Source of the DNA: a virus
Length of the DNA stretch: 64,000 nucleotides
Strand: one strand, 5' to 3'
Virus record (IMG/VR): IMGVR_UViG_3300017774_006254
Location: 64,001 to 128,000 of that record
A program made the position numbers and the translations under genes. The notes under the pieces are model-generated. The model saw nothing but the letters and a program-made list of their open reading frames with translations. It was not told the DNA's origin and searched no databases. Below are positions 32,506 through 60,654 of the stretch, in pieces (position 1 is the first letter of the stretch; every line of letters starts with the position of its first letter).

Positions 32506-33411
32506 ATGGCCTCCTCACCTCCTGTTGCTCCTTCTACGTCTCGCCTGATCTCTCGCTACGGGGTTCGCCCGTCTCAAGGGTCAGGCGAGCTTCGCATGCA
32601 TGCAGGGTTCGACATTGGTACGTCGAAGCGCAGTCGTGAAGACGAGCCTGTCTTTGCGGTAAAGGGCGGCACGGTCACGCTCGTCGCTCCGAATACCGCG
32701 AACAGCAACATGATGGGGTACGGCAATGCCGTCGTGATTCGTCACACCGGCGGGAAGTACGCGCTCTATGCGCACTTGAAAGACGGATCTGTTCGAGTCA
32801 CTCCTGGTCAGACGGTGGATGGTGGCACCCAGATCGGCGTGATGGGCAACACGACCAACGGCAACTTCTCTCCTCTTCCAGGAGAGAGCATCGACGCGTG
32901 GACAGTCCGGGCAAGAGCGCGTGGGTACCGCAGCGGCCCGATGAACCGGCATCTCCATTTCGAGATTCGGTCTGCGCGGCCTGATGGTTCGAGCCCTTTT
33001 CCTGGACCGTACCCAAGTAGCCCTGCTCAAGCGCTGTTCAATGAAGATCCTGGGCCATGGCTTCGAGAGCTGGGCCTTCAGTTCTCGACGCGCGGAGCGA
33101 CTCAAATTCAACCCGGAAGCTCGATCGACACCTCACGCGCCCGCTGGTCGCCGTCGATGGCAGGTGCGTTCGCGGACCTTGGTATGAGCGGAGCTGAAAT
33201 CGACAAGCAGCTTGGCCAAGATTACCAACCGCCTGCGCCAGAGCGTGATGTCAAGTGGGGCCTCACACCAACCGAGTGGACAGTCGCAGCAGTAGGTGGC
33301 GCAGCAATCACGGCGACCGTCGTGGGACTCATCGTACGGAGTCGCATGCAGCCGAACAGGCGTCGCCTCGGCCCAAGGAAGAGCAGGCTCCGAACGTGGG
33401 GAACAAAGTAG
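32506..33411 (+). CDS. M23 family peptidoglycan endopeptidase with C-terminal TM anchor
   Basis: HAGFD (HxxxD), YGNAVVIRH, YAHL, HLHFEIR; TM helix then QPNRRR. Confidence 0.9.
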   Translation: MASSPPVAPSTSRLISRYGVRPSQGSGELRMHAGFDIGTSKRSREDEPVFAVKGGTVTLVAPNTANSNMMGYGNAVVIRHTGGKYALYAHLKDGSVRVTPGQTVDGGTQIGVMGNTTNGNFSPLPGESIDAWTVRARARGYRSGPMNRHLHFEIRSARPDGSSPFPGPYPSSPAQALFNEDPGPWLRELGLQFSTRGATQIQPGSSIDTSRARWSPSMAGAFADLGMSGAEIDKQLGQDYQPPAPERDVKWGLTPTEWTVAAVGGAAITATVVGLIVRSRMQPNRRRLGPRKSRLRTWGTK

Positions 33412-33417
33412 GGCACT

Positions 33418-33426
33418 TGTCGGACA
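33418..33426. promoter_or_regulatory. TGTCNGACA operator
   Basis: TGTCGGACA, intergenic, upstream of TAGGCT -10-like box and ATG 33452. Confidence 0.6.
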
Positions 33427-33451
33427 CGCCTGCCGCGAGTAGGCTGAGACG

Positions 33452-33856
33452 ATGCACGACAAAACAAAGACATGGTCTGACGGACAGGGTGAGAGCCGCG
33501 CATCAGCCGAAGACATGATGGAGGCTCTTGGAGATCAAGAAGACGTCAAGGTGAAGGCTACCCCTTGCGCGACCGGCGTGATCTTGATGGGCAACTGCCA
33601 TCACTGCGGTAGGCAATGGAAGATGATTTCTCCATGGGCCGAAGTCGCGATGATGTTCGTAGGACAGGTTCCGAACGGGACAAATGGCGAGCCGCCGTGG
33701 AAGCCCACAAGGCAGGGCATCTTCATGCGTACGGACTGCGCTTGCGGCAAGAAGAGCCCGATGGTGACCGAGTGGGACGAGATTCGCGCTTGGGTGGACA
33801 TTGGCATTCGCATCGGAGCGCTCAGTCCCATGATTCTAAAGGCGGTCAGGGGGTAG
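33452..33856 (+). CDS. Zn-binding hypothetical protein
   Basis: CHHC...CAC. Confidence 0.6.
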   Translation: MHDKTKTWSDGQGESRASAEDMMEALGDQEDVKVKATPCATGVILMGNCHHCGRQWKMISPWAEVAMMFVGQVPNGTNGEPPWKPTRQGIFMRTDCACGKKSPMVTEWDEIRAWVDIGIRIGALSPMILKAVRG

Positions 33857-34283
33857 CAGGTTCGGGCTTCTGCTCGACTGGAGCTGGCGGGATGTACCCT
33901 CCCAGCTTCACAAAGCTCTCTTCAGCTACAGTTTGAAAGCCCGCCACGATGTGCCGCGCATAGATCACAGCCGAGCGCTCAGCAACCGTCCGACCGTTCT
34001 GAGCAAGGGTGCTGTTGATGCCGTCGAGGCGCACGGCGACGGCGACGAACGTTGCGACATCGCCATGGCGAATGGCCTCAGCTGCCATCTCGGGCGTGAT
34101 GTCGTAGATGCGTCTCGCTAGGTACGTCACAGCTCGGGGCATCTTGCCCATGGCAGGATCCAAACAGACAGAGTCCTGCATGCGCCGCCAGACGGAGTAC
34201 AGCGCCTCGACGCTGCGCACTCTCCCGAGCTGCTGAGGAAGCGCTTTGTACTCGATGACAGCGCCATGCCTGGAAACGGTCAT
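33846..34283 (-). CDS. hypothetical protein
   Basis: ATGA-coupled to the phosphatase gene. Confidence 0.55.
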   Translation of the reverse strand: MTVSRHGAVIEYKALPQQLGRVRSVEALYSVWRRMQDSVCLDPAMGKMPRAVTYLARRIYDITPEMAAEAIRHGDVATFVAVAVRLDGINSTLAQNGRTVAERSAVIYARHIVAGFQTVAEESFVKLGGYIPPAPVEQKPEPATP

Positions 34284-37909: not shown

Positions 37910-37936
37910 GCGTGGCGGATGCGCTAGGATAGACGC

Positions 37937-40521: not shown

Positions 40522-41229
40522 ATGTCATACGCGACGAAGCGCACATCTCTTGGGCAGGTAGACGTTGGTAGCGCTCCTGGTGGAGGTGTCATCCGAAGCA
40601 AGAATGGCTTTTCCTACCAGCTGACACCGGAGGATTTGCTTTGGCTCGCGCGGTCCGTGCAGTACGAAGCGGGCAATTATGCGGCAACCGCCTGGACCTA
40701 CGCGCAGCGCCTTGCAATGGCACGCGGAAGCAGTCTCAAGAACCTCGTGCAAGCGCATAGTCAGCCTATCAACCCCATCTGGCGTCGGGACGGTGACAAG
40801 TGCCGTCCAGGCGGCACGTATCATGGCCGCGACGAGTGCTCTGAGCGCAGGCTTGCCGTGCGCGATCAAGCCGCCTCGCTTCCCTGGACCAGCGTGCGCC
40901 CTGAAGTTCGCGAAACGATTGTGAAGTTCGCGACGGGGCGCCTGCCAAATCCTGTCCCTCGCGCTGCCAACTTTGCGAATGCGCCAGTCACACAAGGCTA
41001 TCTCTCGCGCAACCCCGACTCAGCTATCGTGCTGCGCGACGGCAACTGGTACATCACCGAACGGGCAACGAACTCTTGGCCAGCGGATTTCGTGACCATC
41101 GAAAGCGACGGGCGAATCGCCGGACCCGCAGTTGCCGTCGGAGCAACCGTTGTCGGTGCCGTGGGGGTTGCGGCAGCGGCGAGTTTTGCCTGGTGGGCTT
41201 ACTCGACGAAGTATAAGAAGCGAAGATGA
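40522..41229 (+). CDS. MSY-family protein, SleB-like hydrolase motif, C-terminal TM
   Basis: MSY..SLGQV; DLLWLARSVQYEAG; TM then KYKKRR. Confidence 0.6.
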   Translation: MSYATKRTSLGQVDVGSAPGGGVIRSKNGFSYQLTPEDLLWLARSVQYEAGNYAATAWTYAQRLAMARGSSLKNLVQAHSQPINPIWRRDGDKCRPGGTYHGRDECSERRLAVRDQAASLPWTSVRPEVRETIVKFATGRLPNPVPRAANFANAPVTQGYLSRNPDSAIVLRDGNWYITERATNSWPADFVTIESDGRIAGPAVAVGATVVGAVGVAAAASFAWWAYSTKYKKRR

Positions 41230-44278: not shown

Positions 44279-45778
44279 ATGAGCTACAGTCACAGCCTCG
44301 GGGCCGGTCTATCAGCGCCACTGCTCTCCGCTTCGAATGCGGTGTTGCCGAAGAACACCCTGTCGGTGGCTCCGAAGGCTGCGACTGCGCCTGTGTCAAC
44401 GGATCCGTTTCAGATTGTTCCACCAGAGTGCAGCCGCATGCGTCCTACCGGCACCAGCATCTACCCCACGATTGCTGCGGGTCAGATTGCTATGTTCACT
44501 TGGCCGTATGTGACGCTGGATGACGTCCAGGTTCGGTCTGCGCTTGATGCCATCGTTGGGAACGGTTCACAGGGCGGAGGGCCAGCTGTACTTGCGGGTT
44601 TGGTGAGTGCTGTCAGCTCAGCCGTTGTTGCGACGTCTACCGCTCAGACAGGGCAGGTGACGTCCGACGCTGTGCGCGCAAGAGCGGTCGCCCTTGCTCC
44701 TGCTTTTTTGGCAGCGGGTTTCATCAGAGATGCCGAGGTGAATCAGTCGGTCACGCGGGGGTACTTGTGGATCGCTGCATCTTGGACTGCGGCTCAGAAT
44801 GTCAACGAAGCGAAGCGAATCGTGACGTCTGTTCTGAGGTCCGCGCTTCCTCCTGATGCTCTGTGGACGGGAGCAACGCTTCCATCGGGGAAGGTCAAGG
44901 CGATCTCGGGACTTGTCACGGCAGTGGCGAACGAGTCGGACGTTGCGCTTGAAGCTGCCGCGAAGGAGTCGGTAGTCAGTTTCGTCGAAGCCGCGAGCGC
45001 TCTGGCTTCGGTTGTTGCCACGGTGCTTGGTGGAAGAACCGTATCGAGCGCTGCGGTGGCTATGCGAAACGAGTTCAGCACTTCGTCCGAGAGGATGAGG
45101 AAAGCTGCTTTGGCCATCCAGTCGGCCACCAGCTTGGTCGGTCAAGTTGAGGCCGTGGCTGCGGCGGCGATGGCTCTCCCGGCTGAAGCGCAGAATACGG
45201 CGGGCATTGCGCTACAGGAGATGCAGCAGCGTCTCCGAGAGAGCAAGAGTTGGATCACGGACGGCATGCAGAATGCGCGTTCCGTTCTGGAAACCTGTGC
45301 GCAAGAGACCAACGGAACGGGAGGCATCGCTCGTCGTCTTCGAGATCTCGTGTACGAAGATGCCCGAGCGACCATCGATCGACGAGGCGTACCTACGGTG
45401 GCACGTGAGTACGCAAAGTGTCAGCTGTGGAAGCGGGCTCAGCAGCAGCTGGACAACGAGCTTCGAGGCCTGGCCGCAGAGCTGAGCGGCGCATGCACTG
45501 TTGCTGGCGGCCTCATTCAGAATGGCAATTCACTCGAAGCTTTGATCGCGACTGTCGACGCCGCACTTGCTCGTCTCGACTTCGTCATCTCTCAGCTCCG
45601 GATGAACTGGTGGTCGCGTGACTACATGGGAGTACCAGTCGGCTACTGGATTGGTGGCGCATCTGCGATTGCTCTGGTTGGTGGCGGCCTTGTGATTCGG
45701 TCCATCAAGCGAAGGAGAGCGACAGCTGCGCCACCCAAGCCTGCGCCAGTATCCAAGAACAGGAGGAGATCTCGATGA
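44279..45778 (+). CDS. MSY-family Ala-rich helical protein with C-terminal TM
   Basis: MSYSHSLGA; TM YWIGGASAIALVGGGLVI; tail SKNRRRSR. Confidence 0.7.
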   Translation: MSYSHSLGAGLSAPLLSASNAVLPKNTLSVAPKAATAPVSTDPFQIVPPECSRMRPTGTSIYPTIAAGQIAMFTWPYVTLDDVQVRSALDAIVGNGSQGGGPAVLAGLVSAVSSAVVATSTAQTGQVTSDAVRARAVALAPAFLAAGFIRDAEVNQSVTRGYLWIAASWTAAQNVNEAKRIVTSVLRSALPPDALWTGATLPSGKVKAISGLVTAVANESDVALEAAAKESVVSFVEAASALASVVATVLGGRTVSSAAVAMRNEFSTSSERMRKAALAIQSATSLVGQVEAVAAAAMALPAEAQNTAGIALQEMQQRLRESKSWITDGMQNARSVLETCAQETNGTGGIARRLRDLVYEDARATIDRRGVPTVAREYAKCQLWKRAQQQLDNELRGLAAELSGACTVAGGLIQNGNSLEALIATVDAALARLDFVISQLRMNWWSRDYMGVPVGYWIGGASAIALVGGGLVIRSIKRRRATAAPPKPAPVSKNRRRSR

Positions 45779-46695
45779 GCTACGTCGGACACAGGCATGG
45801 CGTCCCGCCAATGACCCGGCACTTCTACTTGCGTGACCGTGGCCTCGGACAGAGCCCCTCACCTCCGCTTCGCTCTTTTGACGAGCTGCCAAAAGAGGGT
45901 GAGCGATTCAACATCATGTGGGCGCTCTTGAGCGACGCTCCGACGATCCAAGCTCTTCGAAATCGACTGATCGAGCTTCGAGCGTTGAACCCTAGCGAAG
46001 CGGATGATTCTTTGTCCGAGACAGGGGCACTTGTCACTGGATTGAAGAACTTCTGGCTCAGGGCTTCATCCGATCCAGACCTGTGGCCAGGTATCCACGC
46101 TCACCAGAACTTCAACTTCGGCCCGACGAATATGCAGAACGGAGTGGGTCAGATTCGCATCAATAGGGGCATGTGGGACCTCTTGAACGGTGCTGACGTG
46201 CACCGACCATGGCGCGAGACGGACCGTGGATTTGTACGCTTGCGCGCTTCGGACCCTGTCATGACAGCGATGCGCAACAGGCTTTACAGCCTCGGCTACA
46301 TCGACGCAGCCGTCATGCCTTCTGTTCAGGAAAACAGTGAGTTCGTGCGCGCTCTCATGACGTACGCATACGAGCTTGGCGGCATTGGTGTAGACGCGGG
46401 ATCCTGGCCGAGCGGCTTCAATTTCGGCCCGAACGACGGAGATAAGCTCAGGATCTCGTCGCAGCTTCTTAACTCACTGATCAACACACAGGACAACCCG
46501 AGGTCTGTGGCGGCCGTGGAGGGGTTCACATCGGGGATTGCGACCATGCGCACAAAGCCGCCGTTGATTGGCAGCGTGGGCGCAGGTTCGCCGTCGGCGC
46601 TCTTGTTGACGCCAGCGCCTGTCTTGAGAAGGGTAGCCATCTCCAGCATTGCATCTCGCCCCGGCTTGGTCGCGGCAATGACGAAGGCCAGATGA
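45775..46695 (+). CDS. MSY-family protein with two internal repeats (possibly peptidoglycan-binding-like)
   Basis: GLGQ; ALRNRL..FNFGPT..IRI and AMRNRL..FNFGPN..LRI. Confidence 0.6.
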   Translation: MSYVGHRHGVPPMTRHFYLRDRGLGQSPSPPLRSFDELPKEGERFNIMWALLSDAPTIQALRNRLIELRALNPSEADDSLSETGALVTGLKNFWLRASSDPDLWPGIHAHQNFNFGPTNMQNGVGQIRINRGMWDLLNGADVHRPWRETDRGFVRLRASDPVMTAMRNRLYSLGYIDAAVMPSVQENSEFVRALMTYAYELGGIGVDAGSWPSGFNFGPNDGDKLRISSQLLNSLINTQDNPRSVAAVEGFTSGIATMRTKPPLIGSVGAGSPSALLLTPAPVLRRVAISSIASRPGLVAAMTKAR

Positions 46696-47156
46696 TGGAT
46701 GCCAACGCACAAAAAGACCTGTACTGGTTCTTCGTCCAGCTCTGGCCATCGATGGTCGTGGCTCTCATCGTGTACGTGGGCGGTCTGACAACCAACGCGC
46801 TCGCGTCTCTGTTTTTCCCAGCGGCAAAGGCGTACCTCTCTGGCAAGCAAGCAGAGATCGATCCCTCGTGGCCGTTTCTGTTTCGCTTGTGGGCGTCGAC
46901 ACGAGTGTCTCACCCGTTTCTGGTCGGCGCGCTGATTTCTCTTGTTCCAGAACTTCCTCGGCCGGAGTTCGCCGAGGGCGAAATTAGCGCGGCTATGTGG
47001 TTCGGGCTCGTCGGCATGCTCAACGGGCAGGTGCACATGATCGGTGAGTCCGTTGTTCGACAAATTACCAGGGTGGTGGGACTCATTCTTCCGTGGGCTC
47101 GAACGAAGCTTGGCCTTCCAGCAAGCGAGACCGAATCGGACAAGACGGATGCCTGA
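46692..47156 (+). CDS. multi-TM membrane protein (holin-like candidate)
   Basis: three hydrophobic segments. Confidence 0.45.
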   Translation: MMDANAQKDLYWFFVQLWPSMVVALIVYVGGLTTNALASLFFPAAKAYLSGKQAEIDPSWPFLFRLWASTRVSHPFLVGALISLVPELPRPEFAEGEISAAMWFGLVGMLNGQVHMIGESVVRQITRVVGLILPWARTKLGLPASETESDKTDA

Positions 47157-47502
47157 CATTCTGAAGAAGCCTGGTGTTGTTCTGGTCCTGGCGATGGCGA
47201 TCTTGCTCCTGGTCGCACTGGCTGCGACGGCGTTCCAAGGCTGCCACTGCTCGGGGACGCCCGCTCTAATCGTCACGGGAATTGATGCGGGGCCTGGAGA
47301 GCGCATCATCGAGGACAGGCTTGACGCTCGCGTCCAGCAGTTGTCGGTGCGCATTGAGCAGATCGAAGAGAAGTTCTCAGACGACCTAGCGGCTTTCGAT
47401 GCGCAGCAGCGCGCTGAGTACGAGCGCTTGCGCGAAGGTGAAGACCTGGAAGCCGCAGCACGAATGCTGTCTGATTGGAATCGGCACCGGACTCGCCAAT
47501 GA
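47149..47502 (+). CDS. membrane-anchored/lipoprotein coiled-coil protein (spanin-like candidate)
   Basis: N-terminal hydrophobic helix ending AFQGC, then coiled coil. Confidence 0.45.
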   Translation: MPDILKKPGVVLVLAMAILLLVALAATAFQGCHCSGTPALIVTGIDAGPGERIIEDRLDARVQQLSVRIEQIEEKFSDDLAAFDAQQRAEYERLREGEDLEAAARMLSDWNRHRTRQ

Positions 47503-48833
47503 AGTACAGCTTCCGCGAGTTCTCGGATGCATTACCGAAGTCGATTGTGGCACTTGCCCAGGCCAACACCTACGAGGTGCTCAGTCATCCGCGTCTCATC
47601 TTGATGCACGCGGCGGAAGAAGTGCAAATCTTCCTGGATTCCCGTTGTCGCCAGTATCTACCCGAAGCACTACGAGTCCTGCCGAATGACCCTGAGGCCA
47701 GGTTCGACTCTGCGCATGATGATAGACGGTTGATATTCGCAGCTATCGGGGCTCTTTGCGACGAGGGTTTTCAGCCTTTTGCAGCAAATCTAGCTCCGCC
47801 GCCAGATCATGAAGTAGCGGGACTATTGCCGGACATAGGCTTGCTCATTCAGCTGGTTCAACAGGATGAGCCTCTGTACCAGGAGCAAGCAAGCCGGTGG
47901 CTCGTCGCTGCGCATTTTTATGAGCAGTTCCGTGCCTACCTAGAAGAGAGCCCGGGCTTCTCTGAGTCCAGCTTGCGCATGACGCCAGAGCAAGCGGCCA
48001 TTGGAGTGGGAATTATCAACAAGTGGTGGCCGTGGGTTGAAGCGATCGAAGCGGCCTCCAAGTCGGGCGAATGGGTCGACTGGAAAGGCCTTGGCGCGTC
48101 TGGTCTTCATCCGAACGCGAGAGCGACAAGTTTTCGCAAGTTGCTCGCCAGCCTTCCCGAGCCGCTGTCCGGGCCGTTGCGCGTCAAAGATGCGCGCGAG
48201 TCGCTCCAACGATGTGGGAGCGAAGCGCTGTCTACGGCGGCGATCATATGCCGTGCGTCCAAACCGGATGCACTGCGAAAGGCCATCAGCGAAACCGCGC
48301 TCATGAGAAGCGATTTTGAGTTTCTTACTCGCTTCACGTTTGCTGCGATTGCCCGTCTTTCCGATGAGGGCTTTCAGCCGTTCCTTTCCAGTCTGACACC
48401 TCCAAACGATCCCGGGTTTGACGAGTTCTTACCGAGCGCTGACGCGTTGATTCGCCTGGTGCAGCAAGACGAGCGCCTGTATCAGGAGCAAGCTAGCCGC
48501 TGGCTTGTGGCAGCTCATTGCCACGCGCAACTGCGCGCTTACAGCAAGGACAACCCTGAATGCTTTCTTGGTCATTCATACGACAATCTGATGACCATCG
48601 AGCAGGCTGAGGGCTTGGTTGCCATTTTGAACAAATGGTGGCCGTGGGTCGCAATCTGCGACAAGGCGATCTCGACCGAAGGCACCTATGACCCTGCTCG
48701 GCGCTTGCGGGATGGAACGACCAACTACATCGACTGGAAGCATCTTTTTGGCGCTACCGAACTTCGTCCGAATGCAAGACGCACGAGCAAGCGCCGCCGC
48801 ACAAGCAGACGCTCCTCCAGGCGTGTAAGGTAG
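47499..48833 (+). CDS. protein made of two tandem homologous domains with Arg/Ser-rich tail
   Basis: DEGFQPF..LVQQDE.LYQEQASRWLVAAH..NKWWPWV occurs twice; both units end L.PNAR. Confidence 0.75.
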   Translation: MKYSFREFSDALPKSIVALAQANTYEVLSHPRLILMHAAEEVQIFLDSRCRQYLPEALRVLPNDPEARFDSAHDDRRLIFAAIGALCDEGFQPFAANLAPPPDHEVAGLLPDIGLLIQLVQQDEPLYQEQASRWLVAAHFYEQFRAYLEESPGFSESSLRMTPEQAAIGVGIINKWWPWVEAIEAASKSGEWVDWKGLGASGLHPNARATSFRKLLASLPEPLSGPLRVKDARESLQRCGSEALSTAAIICRASKPDALRKAISETALMRSDFEFLTRFTFAAIARLSDEGFQPFLSSLTPPNDPGFDEFLPSADALIRLVQQDERLYQEQASRWLVAAHCHAQLRAYSKDNPECFLGHSYDNLMTIEQAEGLVAILNKWWPWVAICDKAISTEGTYDPARRLRDGTTNYIDWKHLFGATELRPNARRTSKRRRTSRRSSRRVR

Positions 48834-48837
48834 AACC

Positions 48838-49311
48838 ATGTTTCGTCACATCGCTGCGCTCACCATCTGCCTCTGCACTGCCTCCGTGCCCGCTGAGGCC
48901 CAGAATGCGCCCGAGTATCAGCTCACTGAGCCAGCGGACATTCTCCCTCTGCGAAGGGGTTCCGTTGCGCCACGTGACGGGCTTCTCATTGACGCGTCGG
49001 ACCTCCTACAGATTCGCGCCGACTACGAGCGTCTGCGGTTCCTCTTGGCGCGCACCTCAGAGCGCGACACTGAGGTCTGCGGGATACGCGTGCAGATTGA
49101 AGAGGCGCGGACGGCCGCTTGCGGCGAGCGCGTGAGGCTCCGAGACGATCTGTGGACCGCGCGGCAGGCGGAGCTTGTGGGCCAGGTTGCCGCCGCTCAG
49201 GAGCAGGCTCGTCGCGCCGCGGAGCGTGGCTGGTGGGAGCTTCCGATCGTCTGGGCGATACTCGGGGCGGCCGTAGTCGGAGCCGCGTGGATTGCAGCCG
49301 CTGTGTACTAG
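48838..49311 (+). CDS. secreted coiled-coil protein with C-terminal TM
   Basis: signal peptide (AEA-Q), APRDGLLI, C-terminal WAILGAAVVGAAWIAA. Confidence 0.6.
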   Translation: MFRHIAALTICLCTASVPAEAQNAPEYQLTEPADILPLRRGSVAPRDGLLIDASDLLQIRADYERLRFLLARTSERDTEVCGIRVQIEEARTAACGERVRLRDDLWTARQAELVGQVAAAQEQARRAAERGWWELPIVWAILGAAVVGAAWIAAAVY

Positions 49312-50819: not shown

Positions 50820-50823
50820 GGGG

Positions 50824-51033
50824 TCACCTGTGTCGACGGCGACGCCTGTTCTTGCTCATCGCTCTTGCCGGAAGGAAGAGGAGCGCGGCGCCCAGTCCCG
50901 CAATCAGCAGGCCCGTTCCCCACCTTGACTGACTGACACCCTCACCAAGGCCGTTCATGCCACAGCCGCATCCCTCCAAACCCTGCAACGGAAATCGGGT
51001 GCTGCGCATACCTGTGTTCTGCGTGTAACTCAT
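50824..51033 (-). CDS. small MSY-family membrane protein
   Basis: MSYTQ..GLEGCGCGMNGLGE, TM, tail MSKNRRRRRHR. Confidence 0.65.
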   Translation of the reverse strand: MSYTQNTGMRSTRFPLQGLEGCGCGMNGLGEGVSQSRWGTGLLIAGLGAALLFLPARAMSKNRRRRRHR

Positions 51034-51122: not shown

Positions 51123-52334
51123 ATGCGAATTCTAATGGCCACGAACACATATCTTCCCCATGTTGGCGGTGTAGCCAATTCTGTCGACAGAATGGTCAGA
51201 AGCCTTCGAAAGATGGGGCATGACGTCCTTGTCGTGGCGCCTGGGGACAGCGCGATGGCACCCATCTATCTCGATGATGAGCACGTGGTGCGGATGCCTG
51301 CACTCGCTTCTGTCGCTGGCAGTGGATTTGCCCTCCCCCTGCCGACGGCCGAAAAACTGACGGCGATCATCGCCGCATTCGATCCGGACATCATCCACTC
51401 GCACCACCAATTCTCGCTTGGAAAAGCCGCGCTCACGGCGGCTCGCCTTCTTCAGAAGCCCATCGTCGTCACCGTTCACACGTTCCTTGAGAACATGGTC
51501 ACGAGCTTCAAGTCGCCGATCAAAACATCGCCGTCAACAAAGATTGTTGCGGCAGCCGCTTCGTTCCTGGGGATGGCCACGTTCCCGATTTTCTATGAGA
51601 ACCAGTGTGACGCGGTGCTCGCGCCAACCGATAGTGCAGCCAGGCTTCTTCTTGAAAGAGGGGTCACGTCTCCCATCTACATCACGCCGTCGGGCATCGA
51701 CGCTGACATGTACGCGCGGCCTGACGGCGCTCCGGTGAGAAAGAAGTACGCGATAGATCCAGGCGCGTTCGTAATCGGTCACGTTGGCCGACTGTCGAAG
51801 GAGAAGAATCTCATTCTTCTTGCGAATGCGATGGCCATCGCTCTGGCCGACAACTTCGGCACCCGAGCTGTCATCGTGGGAGACGGGCCCTGCATGGGCG
51901 AGATGAAGGCAATCTTTCAGCGGCGTCGCGTCGGGGCTCGTGTGCGCTGGCTTGGCGTGAAGCGTGGCCAAGATCTGGCGAACGCATACGGAGCTATGGA
52001 CGTGTTCGGCTTTGCTTCGGTCATCGAAACCCAAGGCCTTGTCCTGGCTGAGTCAATGGCGGCGAGTACGCCTGTCATCGCGCTGGATGGACCAGGCACG
52101 CGGGACATCATCCGCAGTGGGGAGAACGGCCAATTGGTCTCCGAGTTGAGCCCGGAGGCGCTCGCAGAGGCGATGATCGATTGGGCGAAGATTCCTCGGC
52201 CAGAACGAGTCAGGAGGCGTGCTCAGGCAAGGGCTACTGGGTTCGATTACGCGCTTGAGAAAACCACAGCGAGACTCGTGTCTGTGTACATGCGGGTTGC
52301 ACATGATGTCAGACAGCGAGTACAGTCGCGCTGA
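51123..52334 (+). CDS. GT4 (GT-B) glycosyltransferase, lipid glucosyl/mannosyltransferase-like
   Basis: TNTYLPHVGGVANSV, DIIHSHH, VGRLSKEKN, ETQGLVLAESMA. Confidence 0.9.
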   Translation: MRILMATNTYLPHVGGVANSVDRMVRSLRKMGHDVLVVAPGDSAMAPIYLDDEHVVRMPALASVAGSGFALPLPTAEKLTAIIAAFDPDIIHSHHQFSLGKAALTAARLLQKPIVVTVHTFLENMVTSFKSPIKTSPSTKIVAAAASFLGMATFPIFYENQCDAVLAPTDSAARLLLERGVTSPIYITPSGIDADMYARPDGAPVRKKYAIDPGAFVIGHVGRLSKEKNLILLANAMAIALADNFGTRAVIVGDGPCMGEMKAIFQRRRVGARVRWLGVKRGQDLANAYGAMDVFGFASVIETQGLVLAESMAASTPVIALDGPGTRDIIRSGENGQLVSELSPEALAEAMIDWAKIPRPERVRRRAQARATGFDYALEKTTARLVSVYMRVAHDVRQRVQSR

Positions 52335-52747
52335 TGTCAGACGAAGACTTGAGCCCTCCACCAGCGAACACCGGCGACGCCTACAGGCTCGTCTTCCTGA
52401 AGATTGACTCTGAAGGTGTCATCTCGATCAGCGGTTCGGTCAGGTCTCTCACTACGAAGATCTACGACCGGCGGACAGCGATTCGCTTCGCGGCGCATGA
52501 GATTCAAGAAGCGCCAGTCGGGGTCGCGGAACAGATCGTGGCTGTTGTTGGCCCGAACGGGAGAGCGCTCGCGGTGCTCGCGGCAAGCGGGAAGCCGGTT
52601 CGAGCTGCTCTTGCTCTGCGAACGAAGCGAGCGCTTTCTGGGCTCCTTCCTAACGACATTCAGCCGCGACGCCGAACGAGCCGGACGCCTGTCGATCGCC
52701 TGAGCAAGGGGTCCGAGGCGAAGCGTCGCACGTCGAGACGGGCCTAA
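52334..52747 (+). CDS. hypothetical protein with Arg-rich tail
   Basis: TGATG coupling; LLPN..RRRTSR; TGTCAGACA at 52307-52315 just upstream. Confidence 0.55.
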   Translation: MSDEDLSPPPANTGDAYRLVFLKIDSEGVISISGSVRSLTTKIYDRRTAIRFAAHEIQEAPVGVAEQIVAVVGPNGRALAVLAASGKPVRAALALRTKRALSGLLPNDIQPRRRTSRTPVDRLSKGSEAKRRTSRRA

Positions 52748-52794
52748 TTGCCCAAGGGTGGAGCCAAGGCACCGGGTCGCGTATGCTTGAGCCC

Positions 52795-53178
52795 ATGCAT
52801 GTGAACCCCTCTCCCGCAAGCGTTCAACCGTACGTCCCCTCGCTGTACCTTCCAGGGAGCCTCGGACGCTTTCGTCAGTACCCTCGGCGCGTCGTGACGC
52901 CTATTCCAGGCGCGGGCTACAACGTGGGCCGAGGCGTGTGGGGAGAGCAGGTCTTGTACCTCGGCGGGTACGGCGACCTGTTCCGTCGAGGCCGCTCGTA
53001 CCCGTACGGCAAATACGCTCAGGTGCCATTGCGTGGCATGGGACAGGTTCCGACTTCGCCTTGGTACATGAGGGGCTGGGTCTGGGCTCTCGCAGGAGGA
53101 GGCTTGGCTGTCCTTGGCGCTGGGTCTTACATGGCCCTTCGCAAGAACGGTCGCAGCCGTCGCAGGAGAGCGCGATGA
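52795..53178 (+). CDS. small membrane protein (GMGQ, TM, basic tail)
   Basis: RGMGQVP; TM WVWALAGGGLAVLGAG; LRKNGRSRRRR. Confidence 0.6.
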   Translation: MHVNPSPASVQPYVPSLYLPGSLGRFRQYPRRVVTPIPGAGYNVGRGVWGEQVLYLGGYGDLFRRGRSYPYGKYAQVPLRGMGQVPTSPWYMRGWVWALAGGGLAVLGAGSYMALRKNGRSRRRRAR

Positions 53179-53624
53179 GCTACGCATCCAAGAAGTATTG
53201 GAACGAGTACGCAAGTGCTTGCCAAGGGATGGCGGACGAAGGCGCGTGCTTGAACCGAGCGATTCAGCATGGGGCGTCTGTGACGTTCGCGGCGAGCGGC
53301 ATGGGCCAGGTGCCCGTGCAGACCGTCCAGCAGGGCATCGCCACAGCTGCGAACGTCTCGGAGATCACTGTTCAGCTCTTGCGCAACCCTGAGATGTTTG
53401 CGTCGCAGCAAGCGCCTCGAATCGTCAATGCGCTCGACACGTACATCGTGACGCCGTTAGTCGACCGAGCTGCGGACAGAGCCACGCCGTACTTCGTGCG
53501 CTACGTGATGCCGCCGCTGGCGGTGCTGTACGTGCTGTCTGGTCTCGCGGCTTTCTACAGCTACAAGGTTTTGGAAGGTCAGCGAGACCGAAAGGTGTCG
53601 CCGAACCGTCGTCGACGCAGGTAA
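53175..53624 (+). CDS. MSY-family membrane protein
   Basis: MSYASKK..GMGQVP; TM; VSPNRRRRR. Confidence 0.65.
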   Translation: MSYASKKYWNEYASACQGMADEGACLNRAIQHGASVTFAASGMGQVPVQTVQQGIATAANVSEITVQLLRNPEMFASQQAPRIVNALDTYIVTPLVDRAADRATPYFVRYVMPPLAVLYVLSGLAAFYSYKVLEGQRDRKVSPNRRRRR

Positions 53625-53647
53625 TCAAAAGAAGGCTGGGCGCCACC

Positions 53648-54204: not shown

Positions 54205-54555
54205 ATGTCGTATCACTTGGGCCCGAGTCCAATTCCGCAACCACTGGTGCGGCCGAGGTACACGGCCCCACAGCCTGTGTACGAGTTCCTGCCGCTGGCA
54301 CAAGTTCCTTCTCAGCCCACAGGGCTGGTTCTGGACGCGACCACGAAGCGCGTTCTCATTGCGGTAGGGCTGTTCTTGCTCGCCGTGGTGCTCTTCTACG
54401 TGTTCCGAGGTAAGCCGCTTGCGAAGAACCATCGCCCAATCAAGCGGGCCTCGACGCCAGAACTTGCGAAGAATTTGTACGACCGACTTGAGCGACGCGG
54501 GGGCGCGAACGAGGCGACGATGCGAAGTCTCAAAGCGTACTCAAGAAAGAAGTAG
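54205..54555 (+). CDS. MSY-family membrane protein
   Basis: MSYHLG..LAQVP; TM VLIAVGLFLLAVVLFYVF; LAKNHR. Confidence 0.65.
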   Translation: MSYHLGPSPIPQPLVRPRYTAPQPVYEFLPLAQVPSQPTGLVLDATTKRVLIAVGLFLLAVVLFYVFRGKPLAKNHRPIKRASTPELAKNLYDRLERRGGANEATMRSLKAYSRKK

Positions 54556-55647: not shown

Positions 55648-55695
55648 TTGACACCTGTCTGACATGCGCGTAGCGTGTCGGACATATGTCAGACA
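55648..55695 (+). promoter_or_regulatory. promoter with three TGTCNGACA operators
   Basis: TTGACA, 17 bp, TAGCGT; boxes at 55656-55664, 55676-55684, 55687-55695. Confidence 0.8.
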
Positions 55696-57041
55696 ATTCT
55701 GAAGCGAACGCCTACGCGCCTCATTCCGATGTGACCATCAAGGAGATGGGGGAGGACTTCAAGAGGAGTCCGATCCGCAACTACGTTGCGCCGCCTGCCC
55801 CCGGATACGACGTGCATGGTCTTTGGTCCTGCTTCGGCTCTCAGCACCGCTCGGGCTACGCAACTCACGCGATGGCACTTCATTGGATGCTGTCGAAGGA
55901 GCTTAGTATTCCGACGCAGCTGACTCCACATCGCACGATGGACGTCGACATCGAGAGGTTCCCAGCGGACAGAGAGCAGGTGCTGTTCGAGTGGCACAAG
56001 GAGGCTGTCGGCATCCCTCACGCGCTGTTCGTCAGCTTCCCGCTGGAAGTGGCTGCGGAGATGGAAGAGGCGGCGGGCGCTGTCGTTCCGTACTGCGCGT
56101 TCGAAGGCGACCGTGTGAGCAAGTACGCTCGGGACCTTGCTGAAGGTCCAATCTTCAAGAAGGTCTGGGTTGTCAGCGACTTCGTGAAGCAATCCTTGCT
56201 GGCGGCGGGCGTTCAGTCAGACCGTGTCGACGTGGTGCGACCGATGCTCACGGATGGCTTCTGGTCGATGACCGACATCGACAAGCTCCGGACGAGTCGC
56301 GATCGACCGGTGACCGCCCAGGACCCTTTCGTGTTCGGCGTCATGGGCACGTGGCAGAAGCGCAAGGGCATGCTGGATTTGGTCCGCGCGTACTATTCGT
56401 CGTTTCGACGCGAAGAGCATGTCGAGCTGGTCATTCGCACCAGCTCCATCGCGAGCAATGTCACGATTCGTCGACTGAAGGAACAGATCACAGCGGATCT
56501 TGCTGCGGTTGCTGCGGAGTTTGGCGATCACAACTTCCCGCATGGGCACAGGCAACCTCGTCTTCGTCTTGAACTCGGCACAGACCTGACGGACCAGCAG
56601 GTGATCGAGTGGCTCGGTACGCTCGACTGCTACGTGACGCCTTCGTACGGAGAAGGTCTTGGTATCCCGCAGGTCTGGGCGAAGGCACAGGGCGTCCCGA
56701 TGGTTGCCAGTTCATTCGGCGCGGTCGGCGATCTGCTCACAGAGATTGCAATCGCGAACGGAGGGACCGTCGACGAGATGTTCCCGCATGAACTCGTGCC
56801 GGTTGACCCAGAGATCCTCAGGCTTGGCTTGATGTTCGAGCGGTCGACGCAATGGGGCGGGTACAGGGTGCCAGACCTCGCACAGCACATGCGCTCTGCG
56901 ATGAACGCCGGAAGGATCACGGATGTTGCCGGTGCGATGTACGTGAGGCATGCGTTCGGGAAGGACACGCTTGTTCCGCTCCAGACTGCGCTCGCGAAGG
57001 TCATCCCGAGCAAGATGTCAGAGGAGTGGTTCGAAAAATGA
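55686..57041 (+). CDS. GT4-like glycosyltransferase
   Basis: SGYATHA, GTWQKRKG, PSYGEGLGIPQVWAKAQGVP. Confidence 0.85.
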   Translation: MSDNSEANAYAPHSDVTIKEMGEDFKRSPIRNYVAPPAPGYDVHGLWSCFGSQHRSGYATHAMALHWMLSKELSIPTQLTPHRTMDVDIERFPADREQVLFEWHKEAVGIPHALFVSFPLEVAAEMEEAAGAVVPYCAFEGDRVSKYARDLAEGPIFKKVWVVSDFVKQSLLAAGVQSDRVDVVRPMLTDGFWSMTDIDKLRTSRDRPVTAQDPFVFGVMGTWQKRKGMLDLVRAYYSSFRREEHVELVIRTSSIASNVTIRRLKEQITADLAAVAAEFGDHNFPHGHRQPRLRLELGTDLTDQQVIEWLGTLDCYVTPSYGEGLGIPQVWAKAQGVPMVASSFGAVGDLLTEIAIANGGTVDEMFPHELVPVDPEILRLGLMFERSTQWGGYRVPDLAQHMRSAMNAGRITDVAGAMYVRHAFGKDTLVPLQTALAKVIPSKMSEEWFEK

Positions 57042-58607: not shown

Positions 58608-59109
58608 TGACAATTTGTTTGGTGTGCCGGACTTCAAGCCCGATGCTGTTGCGGGCACCGCTTTGACGCTGTCGAATGCTGTCGAAGCGCGTGCTCTTGT
58701 TCGGCGCATGTCTGGCGAGGAGGATCCCACTCGATGCCATTTTCACTGCGTCATGTGTGGATGGTCCAAGACGCTTCACTTCGACGAAGAAGAGCGAGCC
58801 GCGGTCGGAGATGTCCGCTCGTACACGGGTCCTTGTCCTGACTGCAATTCCATGACGCTTCAGCCGTTCGACACGATCGCCAATGGCGCGTTCAAGTCGA
58901 TCCATGAGATGGCCAGCGACAACCGCAAGAAGGACTACAGCGAGGCCGCGGACGTCTTCATTGATCGGGTGACAGATCGGTTCGGCGGCAGCATCGCAAG
59001 CATGGCGCCCAAGGACCCTGTGGCGTCAGGTGGAACGACACGAGACCAGTTTCCCGACGCCGACATGAGCGACACTTCTGTGGGCGCCACACGCACGAAG
59101 CAGGAGTAG
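58600..59109 (+). CDS. Zn-ribbon hypothetical protein
   Basis: CVMC..CPDC; AGGAG RBS. Confidence 0.6.
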   Translation: MSDDNLFGVPDFKPDAVAGTALTLSNAVEARALVRRMSGEEDPTRCHFHCVMCGWSKTLHFDEEERAAVGDVRSYTGPCPDCNSMTLQPFDTIANGAFKSIHEMASDNRKKDYSEAADVFIDRVTDRFGGSIASMAPKDPVASGGTTRDQFPDADMSDTSVGATRTKQE

Positions 59110-59111
59110 TC

Positions 59112-60335
59112 ATGGAGCACCGTTTTCAGCACATCGATGGTTGGTTCGACTTTGACGACATCTACAGCGAGGCCGTGGCCTCAGTGGACGGCGCAGCGGT
59201 GTTCGTCGAGGTCGGCTCTTGGCTCGGCCGTTCAGCGGCCTTCATGGGCGTGGAGATCGTGAATTCCGAGAAGCCCATCTCGTTCTTCTGCGTGGATACG
59301 TGGAAGGGATCCGTTACCGAGAAGTATCACCAGGACATGGTCGCTGCGAATGGAGGGTCGCTTCGATCTTTGTTCGAGAAGAACGTCGAAGGACTTCCCG
59401 TGATGTCTCTCGAAGGCGACTCCGCTGAGTCCGCTTCGACGTTTGATGACGAGTCGGTTGACTTCGTCTTCATCGATGCAGCTCACGACTTCGAATCGGT
59501 GAGCCGAGACATTCGAGCGTGGTATCCGAAGGTGAAGCCAGGCGGCGTCATCGCGGGACACGACATCGGCTGGAGCGGGCTCTTTGCCGCAGTGCAAAGC
59601 GCCATCCCGGCGAAGGAGATTGAGCAGCGGCGTTCGAGCTGGTGGCACCGGAAGCCGCTTGCTGTGGAACCAAAGCTTCCAGAGCCGCTCGACTTCCAGA
59701 GCGCCGATGCGGTCGTCTGCATCCCATGGGTGAACCGAGAAGACCTCCTGGAGAAGGCGATCTCGTCTGTCCCCTCGTGGCTGCGCGTTGTGGTCATCGA
59801 TCACGGCCAGGACATGTCCATTTCACTTCCCAGCGGAGTGACCCGCTTGAGCACGGCAACGCGGCTCAAGTTCACACAGGTTCAGAATCTCATGCTGCGC
59901 CTCGCCGCAACGAATGGGATCAAGCACCTGTTCTTCATGCACTCGGACGCTTCGTGCTCGACGGACGTCTTCGACAGGCTCAGTGAGGCGGCGCGAGCAA
60001 ACGACGACTGGGGCGTCATCTTCACCCACTACGACGTGCTGGCGGCGTTCCATGTGCCGAACCTGCTATCGCGCGTCGGTGTCTGGGACGAGACGTTCGA
60101 GTGGTATCGAGCTGACTGCGACTACTACAGGCGCGTGCGCCTCGCAGGCCTTGCCACGGCCGACACAGGCCTGGTCGTTCACCATGCACCGTCGTCGACC
60201 ATCGGCGCCGATCCCGCGGAGAAGGCGCACGTGGACGCCGTCGCTGAGTGGCACAAGCTTCACTACCTCCACAAGTGGGGCGGAGAGGACGGGGGAGAGA
60301 AGTTCTCCGTCCCGTACAATCAGAGCGGAAAGTAG
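59112..60335 (+). CDS. class I SAM methyltransferase (Methyltransf_24-like) fused to a GT2-like glycosyltransferase
   Basis: VEVGSWLGRS, VFIDAAH, KPGGVIAGHD; then CIPWVNR, MHSD, WDETF..DCDY. Confidence 0.85.
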   Translation: MEHRFQHIDGWFDFDDIYSEAVASVDGAAVFVEVGSWLGRSAAFMGVEIVNSEKPISFFCVDTWKGSVTEKYHQDMVAANGGSLRSLFEKNVEGLPVMSLEGDSAESASTFDDESVDFVFIDAAHDFESVSRDIRAWYPKVKPGGVIAGHDIGWSGLFAAVQSAIPAKEIEQRRSSWWHRKPLAVEPKLPEPLDFQSADAVVCIPWVNREDLLEKAISSVPSWLRVVVIDHGQDMSISLPSGVTRLSTATRLKFTQVQNLMLRLAATNGIKHLFFMHSDASCSTDVFDRLSEAARANDDWGVIFTHYDVLAAFHVPNLLSRVGVWDETFEWYRADCDYYRRVRLAGLATADTGLVVHHAPSSTIGADPAEKAHVDAVAEWHKLHYLHKWGGEDGGEKFSVPYNQSGK

Positions 60336-60336
60336 C

Positions 60337-60654
60337 TCAAGCGCGGTGTGTGGCCGTCCACACGTAGTTCGCGACCCAGCAAATCGCAGCCCCTGCAAAA
60401 GCCCCCATCAGCGGGGCTTTTTTGCTGCCTCCAGCAGCCATGGACCCCACCGCGCCCGCGATGGCACCGCCCACAACAGCCGCCTGTGTCCCCGCGTTCA
60501 TCGCGCCAACGAGACGAGTCCGGAAGGCATTGCTGACGGCGGTCGGGTCGCACATGGATGACGTGAGAACCTGGCCCATGCCCACATGGCGCAGGTTGGC
60601 CTTCATGTCTCGGATCATCCACTCGGGAACGTCTGTTTTTGACTTGTAGCTCAT
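60337..60654 (-). CDS. MSY-family membrane protein
   Basis: MSYKS..GMGQVL; two Gly/Ala-rich hydrophobic helices. Confidence 0.65.
   Translation of the reverse strand: MSYKSKTDVPEWMIRDMKANLRHVGMGQVLTSSMCDPTAVSNAFRTRLVGAMNAGTQAAVVGGAIAGAVGSMAAGGSKKAPLMGAFAGAAICWVANYVWTATHRA
60395..60425. terminator. bidirectional-type intrinsic terminator
   Basis: GCAAAA-GCCCC..GGGGC-TTTTTTGC at the convergence of operons. Confidence 0.7.

Follow-up and report, generated by a model that had tools for sequence, protein, structure and literature searches.

What role could unite proteins of one virus that are alike only in a few short tags? The question is raised by a 64,000-nucleotide stretch of DNA, called the window here (positions 64,001 to 128,000 of IMG/VR record IMGVR_UViG_3300017774_006254), from an uncultured freshwater bacterial virus whose genome of 161,502 bp and 208 called genes is a complete record with terminal repeats. 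Open reading frames beginning with Met-Ser-Tyr (MSY) and carrying short glycine motifs, a C-terminal transmembrane segment (TM) and an Arg-rich tail had been proposed to belong to a targeting or maturation system of an internal-membrane virion. The tags are real and enriched far beyond chance on unrelated proteins. About a dozen such proteins share them, and since related viruses keep the tags, these are probably particle-addressing signals.

Enrichment of the tags

All seven MSY starts noted in the window were confirmed (40522, 44279, 45775, 53175 and 54205 on the plus strand, 51033 and 60654 on the minus strand; Table 1). Genome-wide, 18 of the 208 called genes begin in this way, a count slightly favoured by the entry of some MSY ORFs into the gene list by hand. 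The frequency of Ser at position 2 and that of Tyr overall would predict 1.6 (binomial p about 2e-14). Ser is encoded by AGY in 13 of these starts and by TCN in five, and the use of both codon families points to selection on the amino acid. The predicted enrichment of the glycine motifs over background was likewise found. In none of 1000 within-protein shuffles were the observed counts reached, either for G[LM]GQ (7 against 0.86 expected) and [LM]GQV (6 against 0.84) or for the tail patterns N[RK][RK][RK] (14 against 2.9) and [VMLI]xxNRR (12 against 1.7). The elements also occur together: a C-terminal TM or tail is present in 12/18 MSY genes versus 21/190 others (Fisher p 3.5e-7), and GLG or [LM][GA]Q lies within the first 60 residues in 12/18 versus 12/190 (p 3.6e-9).

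Table 1. Genes of the window with their tags and upstream elements.
Product	Position	Strand	Length (aa)	Features	Upstream element
M23 peptidase	32506..33411	+	301	Pfam Peptidase_M23, 57.7 bits (cut-off 28.7); start without MSY; internal Leu-Gly-Gln 236-238; C-terminal TM about 260-276; MQPN-RRR tail	-10-like TACGAT box at 32494-32499, 6 nt 5' of ATG
SleB-fold cell-wall hydrolase	40522..41229	+	235	Fold by structure comparison of AlphaFold model; MSY; SLGQ 9-12; C-terminal TM about 203-232; KKRR end	
Ala-rich protein	44279..45778	+	499	MSY-SHS-LGAG; C-terminal TM; VSKN-RRRSR tail	TACGAT box at 44267, 6 nt 5' of ATG
306-aa protein	45775..46695	+	306	MSY; RGLGQ 22-26; no TM	
Membrane protein	46692..47156	+	154	N-terminal TM; tag-free conserved cluster neighbour	
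Protein with internal duplication	47499..48833	+	444	No TM; Arg-rich tail LRPN-ARRTSKRRR..., 11 basic among last 18 residues	
157-aa protein	48838..49311	+	157	Signal-peptide-like N-terminus; C-terminal TM; no Arg tail	-10-like box 6 nt upstream
69-aa protein	50824..51033	-	69	MSY; NGLGEG; TM; MSKN-RRRRRHR tail	TACAGT 7 nt 5' of ATG
137-aa protein	52334..52747	+	137	Arg-rich C-terminal tail; no TM	
131-aa protein	52783..53178	+	131	GMGQV 85-89; TM about 15 residues on; LRKN-GRSRRRRAR tail	
149-aa protein	53175..53624	+	149	MSY; GMGQV 42-46; TM; VSPN-RRRRR tail	Ribosome-binding site doubles as AGG-containing Arg codons of the 52783 gene
116-aa protein	54205..54555	+	116	MSY; PLAQV at about residue 31; central TM; basic C-terminal part	
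105-aa protein	60337..60654	-	105	MSY; GMGQV 25-29; two Gly/Ala-rich hydrophobic segments; no Arg tail	TAAGCT box 6 nt 5' of ATG

That most of these proteins end in a Gly/Ala-rich TM followed by an Arg tail stands as the association given above, although three depart from the plan: the 45775 protein has neither feature, that at 60654 has no Arg tail, and the TM of the 54205 protein is central. The motif-bearing ORF originally placed at 52795 does contain GMGQV, but is best read as 52783-53178. Two MSY starts look coincidental, namely those of the exonuclease-like 20502 protein and of a protein at genome position 152784.

These two coincidental-looking starts, together with the inflation of ORF lengths by high G+C, are what could be said for the notion that the tags reflect chance, a gene-calling artefact or a functionless relic of common descent. 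This explanation is highly improbable. It is contradicted by the shuffle and binomial statistics and by the conservation of the tags, with spacers of varying length, in orthologues whose identity is as low as about 40%. In addition, four pairwise BLASTP runs bear out the claim that the tagged proteins are otherwise dissimilar, with similarity confined to the motif (E 0.017 to 2.4), which likewise argues against chance.

Conservation in relatives and the cell-wall enzymes

In related virus genomes of 94-298 kb, orthologues retain the tags but separate them by anything from 1 to about 40 residues, as is seen in five families (SleB-fold, 499-aa, 306-aa, 105-aa and 149-aa). Ser-Tyr is kept after GTG or TTG starts, and in the most distant relative (G005) 4 of 5 translated MSY starts use TCN codons, both again in line with selection on the amino acid. 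Gln follows the motif throughout the subclade of G000, G001, G002 and G004; in more distant orthologues and G005, the residue after GLG is A, S, T, D or E. In relatives, tagged genes form tandem clusters. The protein most conserved in the family (32.1-32.9 kb) is 6 kb away from a second tagged cluster at 39-47 kb. Two observations count against the reading proposed below: some orthologues in G002 have G[LM]GQ without MSY, and neither tag occurs in the 20 kb seen of another distant relative (L008).

Among six homologues of the 499-aa protein, four start with MSYS.GLG or an equivalent and two with MY..GL, and all six end in V/A-x-K-N-[RK]. All four copies seen of the 306-aa protein combine a Ser-Tyr start with RGLGQ; the orthologues in L011, L012 and L013 use a GTG or TTG start codon, and Ser-Tyr, 1-4 residues and RGLGQ come next. 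This protein may bind peptidoglycan, a weak lead from an Atlas feature score (PG_binding = 0.79) below the level that counts beyond a lead. In the 105-aa family, MSY-(18)-GLGQM in L011 and MSY-GG-MGQA in G002 give, with the window's copy, spacers of 18, 2 and 22 residues. The 149-aa family has G[LM]GQ in 4/4 copies, with G-L-G-Q-[V/S] and an h-x-x-N-[RK]RRR tail in all orthologues (G001, G002, G004); the copy in G001, though not that in G002, opens with Ser-Tyr. The L011 orthologue of the 116-aa protein has a GTG-Thr-Tyr start and SLGE. Both L009 and L013 hold orthologues of the 157-aa protein and syntenic ones of the tag-free 154-aa protein.

The prediction that cell-wall enzymes are among the tagged proteins holds for the M23 peptidase and for the 40522 hydrolase. 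The AlphaFold model of the latter (pLDDT 90.3) comprises a disordered leader (residues 1-20, pLDDT 50-60 versus 96-98 for the domain) and a helix at 206-232, and was aligned with VIA-align to the SleB-fold structures 4F55 (Z 10.0, rmsd 2.9 Å, 116 aligned) and 4FET (Z 9.8). Of its 119 homologues, 32 start with MSY and 14 with MTY (46 M[ST]Y), most of them with GLG at a distance of none to about 40 residues; leaderless orthologues also exist, which start a few residues past the leader site. M23 orthologues in G001 and G002 keep [A/Q]LGQ 20-25 residues ahead of the TM in an otherwise variable linker. The leader occurs on other enzyme folds as well, such as a PF11860 muramidase in L012, and the tagged wall enzymes of relatives include a muramidase and a GDSL esterase.

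The presence of several wall hydrolases bearing a membrane anchor, numerous small membrane proteins and a neighbour outside the window with a weak holin-family match (E 0.025) could instead suggest a set acting in the infected cell rather than in the particle. Membrane-anchored endolysins and holin-like and spanin-like proteins would then effect lysis or envelope remodelling, with the tags setting timing or turnover. This is quite unlikely, given that the tagged proteins number about 25, far above any lysis cassette known to us, and that the hydrolases have no N-terminal secretion signal. Moreover, contact with DNA is indicated by the length of the Arg tails and by an Arg-rich protein of 921 aa, and the proximity of the second tagged cluster to the most conserved protein also speaks against it.

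Particle type and proposed signals

The original observation that the window holds no tailed-phage hallmark extends to the complete genome for every hallmark searched: in six-frame searches, neither a terminase nor a portal nor an HK97 capsid turned up. The same searches did not yield the proteins that the original prediction had named for an internal-membrane virus, namely a double-jelly-roll capsid of PRD1 P3 or NCLDV (giant-virus) type detectable by sequence, an FtsK or HerA packaging ATPase (A32 was likewise absent) or an adenain/Ulp1-type (clan CE) protease (no Peptidase_C5 or C48 match at E <= 1). Comparison of ten proteins (235-1572 aa) with PHROG yielded nothing beyond two matches without known function and one weak match to a primase.

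The best reading of the whole, to which somewhat less than an even chance is given jointly, is that the source is a large tailless bacterial virus, as judged from its genes, and that the tags are modular short linear signals for virion addressing and maturation; virion location, membrane, cleavage, tail–DNA contact and the identity of the processing enzyme are inferred. The first element would be the N-terminal Met-Ser/Thr-Tyr cap, followed by a variable disordered spacer and Gly-Leu/Met-Gly (with Gln in the subclade named above); the motif may alternatively be placed in the linker just ahead of the anchor. The second would be a single hydrophobic helix at the extreme C-terminus, a putative tail anchor in a virus-associated lipid membrane. 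The third, peculiar to this subclade, would be hydrophobic-x-x-Asn leading into the Arg-rich tail, which may face and bind the DNA core. Against this arrangement, a protein with an Arg run behind a single TM would not easily be inserted from the cytoplasm, and its topology is therefore ambiguous. The cap and G[LM]G segment would be recognized or processed, presumably by cleavage, during incorporation or maturation, and a transglutaminase-fold enzyme may act on the motif. Tagged wall enzymes would serve entry into the next host.

Several known systems resemble this scheme in part. In T4, the capsid targeting sequence has a protease site at its end and is removed by the gp21 prohead protease. 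It is a short conserved N-terminal peptide, the sole feature shared by diverse internal proteins, and brings about their entry into the particle (PMC3012670). The modular leader on diverse proteins is alike; unlike T4, which is tailed and has an HK97 fold and a scaffolding core, the present virus has no HK97 capsid, portal or terminase match, its motif is MSY...G[LM]G, its carriers are mostly tail-anchored membrane proteins, and cleavage of its leader is putative. In adenovirus, the clan CE protease AVP (adenain) cuts pVI, pVII, pre-mu, pIIIa, pVIII and pTP. Its sites, such as IVGL↓G, are of a Gly-x-Gly type that recurs in many particle and Arg-rich core proteins (PMC4246237). A site of this type and a basic, DNA-condensing core alongside processing, both putative here, would be shared, whereas the present virus infects bacteria, its candidate enzyme is of transglutaminase fold in place of a Peptidase_C5/C48 match, and the adenovirus consensus is matched in part, since the residue four before the putative cut (M, A, F, L, H, D or Y) is not consistently hydrophobic.

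The Tectiviridae, including PRD1, are internal-membrane phages whose virion-borne lytic enzymes open the wall at entry. Wall enzymes that may travel with a virion membrane and many small membrane proteins encoded together are points in common; in contrast, the present genome is about ten times larger and has no P3, FtsK, A32 or HerA match. To our knowledge, no shared tags have been described for PRD1 proteins, and a literature search found no paper joining tail-anchored proteins with internal-membrane phages. The order of motif, hydrophobic helix and Arg cluster in the M23 and 52783 proteins also recalls sortase, exosortase and rhombosortase signals. However, the motif here lies 13-25 residues ahead of the helix or far N-terminal rather than abutting it, the Arg run is far longer, and no sortase-type enzyme was found among the proteins scanned against Pfam.

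The transglutaminase-fold enzyme and the role of the motif

Adjoining the tagged cluster, the viruses of this group conserve a gene for a 198-aa Cys-His-Asp enzyme of transglutaminase fold. The enzyme was found in 6/9 relatives searched, all six at least 90% complete by CheckV; the three without it are 47-62% complete. Its homologues exceed the Transglut_core cut-off, and D119, C120, H158 and D175 are invariant across 28 of them.

Such an enzyme could use the Gln of G[LM]GQ as an acyl donor and stabilize the particle by joining tagged proteins to lysines of a shell or core. The invariant triad, the superfamily and the Gln present throughout the subclade would suit cross-linking. It is nevertheless distinctly improbable, since the bacterial members of the transglutaminase-like superfamily are mostly proteases or amidases rather than cross-linkers, and distant orthologues and G005 have GLG-[A/S/T/D/E] with the enzyme still present.

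Alternatively, the cap and G[LM]G(Q) may form docking peptides that bind a pocket in a shell, scaffold or membrane-organizing protein and stay on, just as encapsulin cargo-loading peptides are docking signals retained on the mature protein. The motif is indeed short, flanked by disordered Pro/Ser/Ala-rich sequence and placed at the N-terminus or ahead of the anchor; conservation at the very N-terminus suggests that a free end is recognized, and the six-frame search for a dedicated protease family (clan CE) gave no match. Uncut docking is still unlikely: protease sites known from viruses have a similar small-hydrophobic-small core (PMC4246237), orthologues without the whole leader fit a disposable segment, and the conserved Cys-His-Asp enzyme adjoins the tagged cluster.

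For processing during maturation, this enzyme is the leading candidate to act on the motif, in a role that would parallel that of LapG-type proteinases. The latter have a Cys-His-Asp transglutaminase fold and cut a surface protein at a small-residue motif near its N-terminus. The viral enzyme differs in its small size and in being conserved among these viruses. Some of its homologues are fused to peptidoglycan-binding domains, so it may be another wall hydrolase rather than a maturation protease. Complex prediction weakly supports its pairing with residues 1-40 of the SleB-fold protein: the score was 0.45 against 0.01 for the best control, with runs agreeing in at least 52% of contacts and a partner pLDDT of at least 43. 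The mark used was reached by 58/80 solved complexes and 2/110 mismatched pairs, of which 7 solved complexes and both mismatches did so at a score of 0.60 or under.

Short tags on otherwise dissimilar proteins

The seven ORFs originally predicted to begin with Met-Ser-Tyr (MSY) all do so, each at the position predicted for it. Genes were called by a simple codon-usage scheme, hand-corrected where ORFs of the original prediction had been missed, and 18 of the 208 genes start with MSY where 1.6 would be expected (p about 2e-14); most of these then carry a Gly-Leu/Met-Gly motif (G[LM]G). A six-frame scan of the genome reveals 23 ATG-Ser-Tyr sites, of which 22 open ORFs of at least 40 residues and about 16 head one recognisable protein class. 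The recurring motifs likewise stand out from background. In 1000 within-protein shuffles, none of which reached the observed counts, G[LM]GQ was expected 0.86 times (7 seen), [LM]GQV 0.84 times (6 seen), Asn followed by three basic residues 2.9 times (14 seen), and hydrophobic-x-x-Asn-Arg-Arg 1.7 times (12 seen). Proteins with an MSY start more often have a C-terminal helix or tail (Fisher p 3.5e-7), and more often a Gly motif within the first 60 residues (p 3.6e-9). Four pairwise comparisons between tagged proteins showed no similarity beyond the motif itself. The tagged genes form two groups in the genome, a minus-strand tandem run at 39.4-46.9 kb and the set in the window. In a hydropathy scan of all genes, a single hydrophobic helix was found in the last ~50 residues of proteins devoid of an N-terminal signal peptide, which is the arrangement of tail-anchored proteins and is also seen in relatives; the long Arg tail complicates the topology rule usually applied to such proteins.

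Two explanations at the level of nucleic acid were considered for the MSY start. Since both Ser codon families are used (AGY 13, TCN 5), the constraint acts on the protein, and a nucleotide-level signal is ruled out. The second explanation, leaderless translation, draws on the -10-like boxes of the window: TAnnnT-N6-ATG sites number 12 against 6.2 expected, nine fall exactly on called gene starts (see table), including those of the M23 peptidase, the 499-aa protein (start 44279) and the 105-aa protein (start 60654, minus strand), and the same box-ATG arrangement recurs ahead of orthologues in relatives. These boxes suggest a host that uses leaderless mRNAs, and leaderless transcripts seem, as far as sequence can tell, to be common in the virus without being tied to MSY. 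Leaderless translation was rejected as the cause of MSY, given that leaderless-type genes in the window start otherwise and some MSY genes follow ribosome-binding sites. Several tagged genes close with AGG AGG Arg codons that also provide the Shine-Dalgarno sequence for the MSY gene that follows, its ATG overlapping the stop codon; the tail sequence is therefore dual-use in tandem arrays. An exonuclease-like protein that also starts with MSY has none of the other tags; its start is regarded as coincidental and the protein does not belong in the set.

Coordinates of the features discussed, in window positions or in positions of the whole contig (genome)
Feature	Coordinates	Strand	Remark
-10-like box	window 14192-14206		6 nt before ATG
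-10-like box	window 31816-31830		6 nt before ATG
-10-like box	window 32494-32508		6 nt before ATG
-10-like box	window 33440-33454		6 nt before ATG
-10-like box	window 37925-37939		6 nt before ATG
-10-like box	window 44267-44281		6 nt before ATG
-10-like box	window 48826-48840		6 nt before ATG
-10-like box	window 60652-60666	-	6 nt before ATG
-10-like box	window 62496-62510		6 nt before ATG
Dual-use AGG AGG tail	window 45751-45774
Dual-use AGG AGG tail	window 53140-53174
Dual-use AGG AGG tail	genome 40540-40560
Dual-use AGG AGG tail	genome 41103-41125
Exonuclease-like protein	window 20502-21158		MSY start only
Block of large family-less proteins	window 23858-32502		directly upstream of M23 gene
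M23 peptidase	window 32506-33411
369-aa protein	window 36800-37909		alternative candidate protease
SleB-fold protein	window 40522-41229		235 aa
Tyrosine integrase	window 41618-42661	-	among tagged genes
444-aa protein	window 47499-48833		internal duplication
LexA-type DNA-binding protein	window 49347-50135	+	among tagged genes
Glycosyltransferase/methyltransferase set	window 51123-52334, 55686-57041, 59112-60335		amid tagged genes
P0281, capsid candidate	genome 32093-32905	-	270 aa
Candidate processing enzyme	genome 47236-47832		198 aa, outside window
DUF7873 protein	genome 132079-132819	-	outside window

Carrier proteins and their relatives

Cell-wall enzymes had been claimed among the tagged proteins, and both the M23 peptidase and the SleB-like protein bear this out, the former by Pfam (Peptidase_M23, 57.7 bits against a cut-off of 28.7, E 1.3e-15) and the latter by model comparison. 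The AlphaFold model of the SleB-fold protein, built with an alignment of 31 homologues (pLDDT 90.3), comprises a disordered, non-hydrophobic stretch (residues 1-20), a compact domain, and a terminal helix (206-232 of 235). Its domain superposes on the SleB catalytic domain with Z 10.0 for 4F55 (rmsd 2.9 A, 116 of 128 residues) and Z 9.8 for 4FET, the only chains with Z of at least 2 among the 439 compared. The protein had no Pfam match at E <= 0.01 (PF07486 included), no hit in a PDB profile search, and no match at E <= 0.001 by Foldseek alone, so that the SleB fold was resolved only by VIA; its Atlas lead, Hydrolase_2, agrees with this fold. Glu49 is invariant in the 31 homologues and may correspond to the SleB catalytic Glu. 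For the 306-aa protein (start 45775) only a weak peptidoglycan-binding lead emerged, and no family was found for the remaining carriers. In relatives, a PF11860 muramidase bears both leader and C-terminal anchor, and a GDSL esterase ends in such an anchor. The 444-aa protein of the window is internally duplicated, with the words DEGFQPF and NKWWPWV occurring twice each, and a scan of viral contigs for loci related to it gave none.

Conservation in related viruses provides the strongest evidence for the tags, as judged from sequence. The SleB-fold family counts 119 homologues with identities of 35-93%, many of them from contigs of 80-140 kb. MSY is the called start of 32 and MTY of 14, and in several more the call is too long and M[ST]Y lies slightly inside it; in the leader, 0 to about 40 residues separate MSY from GLG, after which comes Q, A, S, T, D or E. 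At the C-terminus nearly all have a hydrophobic helix plus some basic residues, few in number, and in a subset with no leader the start falls a few residues past the leader site. In the 499-aa family, all six copies end in V/A-x-K-N-[RK], and four of them have MSYS.GLG. All four copies seen of the 306-aa family possess Ser-Tyr and RGLGQ, three of them with a GTG or TTG start. The 105-aa family retains MSY and G[LM]GQ across a spacer of 22, 18 or 2 residues, and the 149-aa family (start 53175) retains G[LM]GQ[V/S] and the Asn-Arg tail in 4/4 genomes, with a Ser-Tyr start in only 2/4. In the M23 orthologues, [A/Q]LGQ is kept 20-25 residues ahead of the helix in an otherwise variable linker. ATG-Ser-Tyr sites group on one strand in each of the four relatives examined whole; in G001 a dozen tagged genes follow one another in tandem. 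The most distant relative (G005) has MSY-E/H-Y...GLG leaders and anchors ending in RKKD, with no long Arg tail; by this pattern the old elements are the cap (Ser/Thr-Tyr after Met), the Gly motif and the anchor, and the Gln and the Asn-Arg tail are subclade-specific. On a distant contig (L008), anchors alone were seen.

Virus type and closest precedents

The record of the 161,502-bp contig, of which the window is bases 64001-128000, describes a virus with direct terminal repeats and an estimated completeness of 100%; the sample it came from is typed as a freshwater metagenome. Six-frame profile searches of this complete genome returned no match at E <= 1 for terminases (Terminase_6N, TerL_ATPase, Terminase_3), capsid and portal families (Phage_capsid, Phage_cap_E, Phage_portal, SPP1_portal), the PRD1 P3 and NCLDV capsids (PF09018, PF04451), Pox_A32 and DUF87/HerA (PF04665, PF01935), or the adenain and Ulp1-like Peptidase_C5 and Peptidase_C48 (PF00770, PF02902). 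FtsK_SpoIIIE (PF01580) scored just 16 bits, inside an SNF2 helicase, and thus indicates no FtsK-type packaging ATPase. The same searches recovered their families in control genomes. The original prediction that no tailed-phage hallmark contradicts a tailless virus, made for the window, extends to the whole genome by the terminase, capsid and portal searches. Its positive hallmarks did not materialize in that genome: neither a double jelly-roll capsid by sequence profile, nor an FtsK/HerA ATPase, nor an adenovirus/poxvirus-type cysteine protease was found. PHROG hits among ten proteins of 235-1572 aa are uninformative, comprising a weak primase match and two function-unknown families. Pfam likewise assigned no informative family to 26 proteins of the window and upstream module. 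P0281, which is better conserved than any other protein of the virus family (257 homologues, with at least 69% identity over the top 120), is a capsid candidate; its AlphaFold model (pLDDT only 47.6) is too poor for a fold search, and a profile search against the PDB gave nothing meaningful. The literature searched contains no description of such a virus family, nor of tail-anchored proteins in internal-membrane phages. The family is uncultured and apparently undescribed.

T4, adenovirus, the poxviruses and other complex viruses bring many unrelated proteins into one particle via shared targeting or maturation signals. To our knowledge, such a code has not been described for tailless or membrane-containing bacterial viruses. 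The T4 capsid targeting sequence (PMC3012670) and adenovirus sites such as IVGL|G (PMC4246237) come closest to the tags. Because the defining proteins of both are absent, the tag system would work like these systems but belongs to neither. As in T4, unrelated proteins have a conserved N-terminal peptide in common (18/208 MSY, pairs dissimilar), but by profile search this genome lacks an HK97-fold prohead, portal and terminase. The G[LM]G(Q) sites are enriched and conserved, but compared with the adenovirus consensus (M/I/L)XGX|G their P4 is variable (M, A, F, L, H, D, Y), and, unlike in adenovirus, no adenain/Ulp1-like protease match was found in the genome. A further difference, from PRD1-like viruses, is that no FtsK/HerA/A32-type packaging ATPase was matched here. 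Unlike sortase or exosortase signals, the motif lies 13-25 residues upstream of the helix (M23 and the protein at 52783) or is N-terminal; as it is not adjacent to the TM helix, sortase-like sorting is ruled out.

A candidate enzyme, a possible address code and neighbouring genes

A 198-aa Cys-His-Asp protein is encoded adjoining the first tagged cluster. Of the nine relatives searched, the six in which it was found (36-83% identity) are each at least 90% complete, and the three lacking it are 47-62% complete. Its family comprises 750 cluster representatives, and D119, C120, H158 and D175 are invariant in 28 homologues. No Pfam family matched the protein itself, but its homologues exceed the Transglut_core cut-off of 23 with 29-53 bits. 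The triad and this profile match of the homologues assign it to the transglutaminase-like superfamily as a putative member. Complex prediction for the enzyme with the SleB-fold leader scored 0.45 (best control 0.01), which hints faintly at leader recognition. The enzyme could also be a wall hydrolase, because some homologues are fused to peptidoglycan-binding domains. Cross-linking with Gln as donor is less likely than cutting or binding, because distant lineages keep the enzyme without the Gln. Two close relatives of the enzyme, P0131 and P0134, have a ~330-residue insertion right after the catalytic Cys; its weak Hint and LAGLIDADG matches make it a probable intein, lodged in a gene that this virus group conserves. 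An alternative candidate protease is the 369-aa protein of the window, which combines a weakly kinase-like N-terminal half (ABC1, E 5e-4) with a C-terminal, zinc-protease-like HEFGH motif and whose L009 orthologue carries DUF5661.

The reading we favour, tentatively, is that the tags are modular particle-addressing and maturation signals: the anchor would keep the protein in the virus membrane, the Arg tail would touch the DNA core, and the cap and G[LM]G segment would be recognised and probably cut. The same tags would recruit wall-degrading enzymes of four different folds. That the tags are present, conserved and modular is shown; the rest of this reading is inferred.

A bolder version we consider possible, if rather unlikely: in a 94-298 kb family of tailless bacterial viruses the Ser-Tyr cap, G[LM]G processing site, tail anchor and Asn-Arg tail would form an address code which, with a conserved transglutaminase-fold cysteine protease, loads and matures two dozen membrane and core proteins, including entry enzymes. 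If true, the maturation pathway would be convergent with those of adenoviruses and poxviruses, built from different parts, and would sit in a virus lineage without a known capsid, portal or packaging-motor gene. A code readable from sequence would offer a practical listing of the probable particle proteins of an uncultured virus family and point to testable sites and a candidate processing enzyme. The short tags could also be tried to load foreign proteins.

The tyrosine integrase and LexA-type protein hint at a temperate or integrating lifestyle. An integrase near the SleB-fold gene is also present in contigs L007 and L009, and another integrase in L012. Two glycosyltransferases (GT4, GT1-like) and a methyltransferase-containing 407-aa protein are encoded in the window, and orthologues of this set recur in L011. 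The large family-less proteins upstream of the M23 gene (1059, 235, 418, 178, 489 and 224 aa) may constitute another structural or host-recognition module. Elsewhere in the genome, the coding score per residue peaks, by a wide margin, at a DUF7873 protein (E 1e-84). Finally, 53% of sampled words of window 44201-54200 are present in a 2025 sequencing run (X2) whose label is an organism name and not a metagenome, which could point to a host or culture carrying a close relative.
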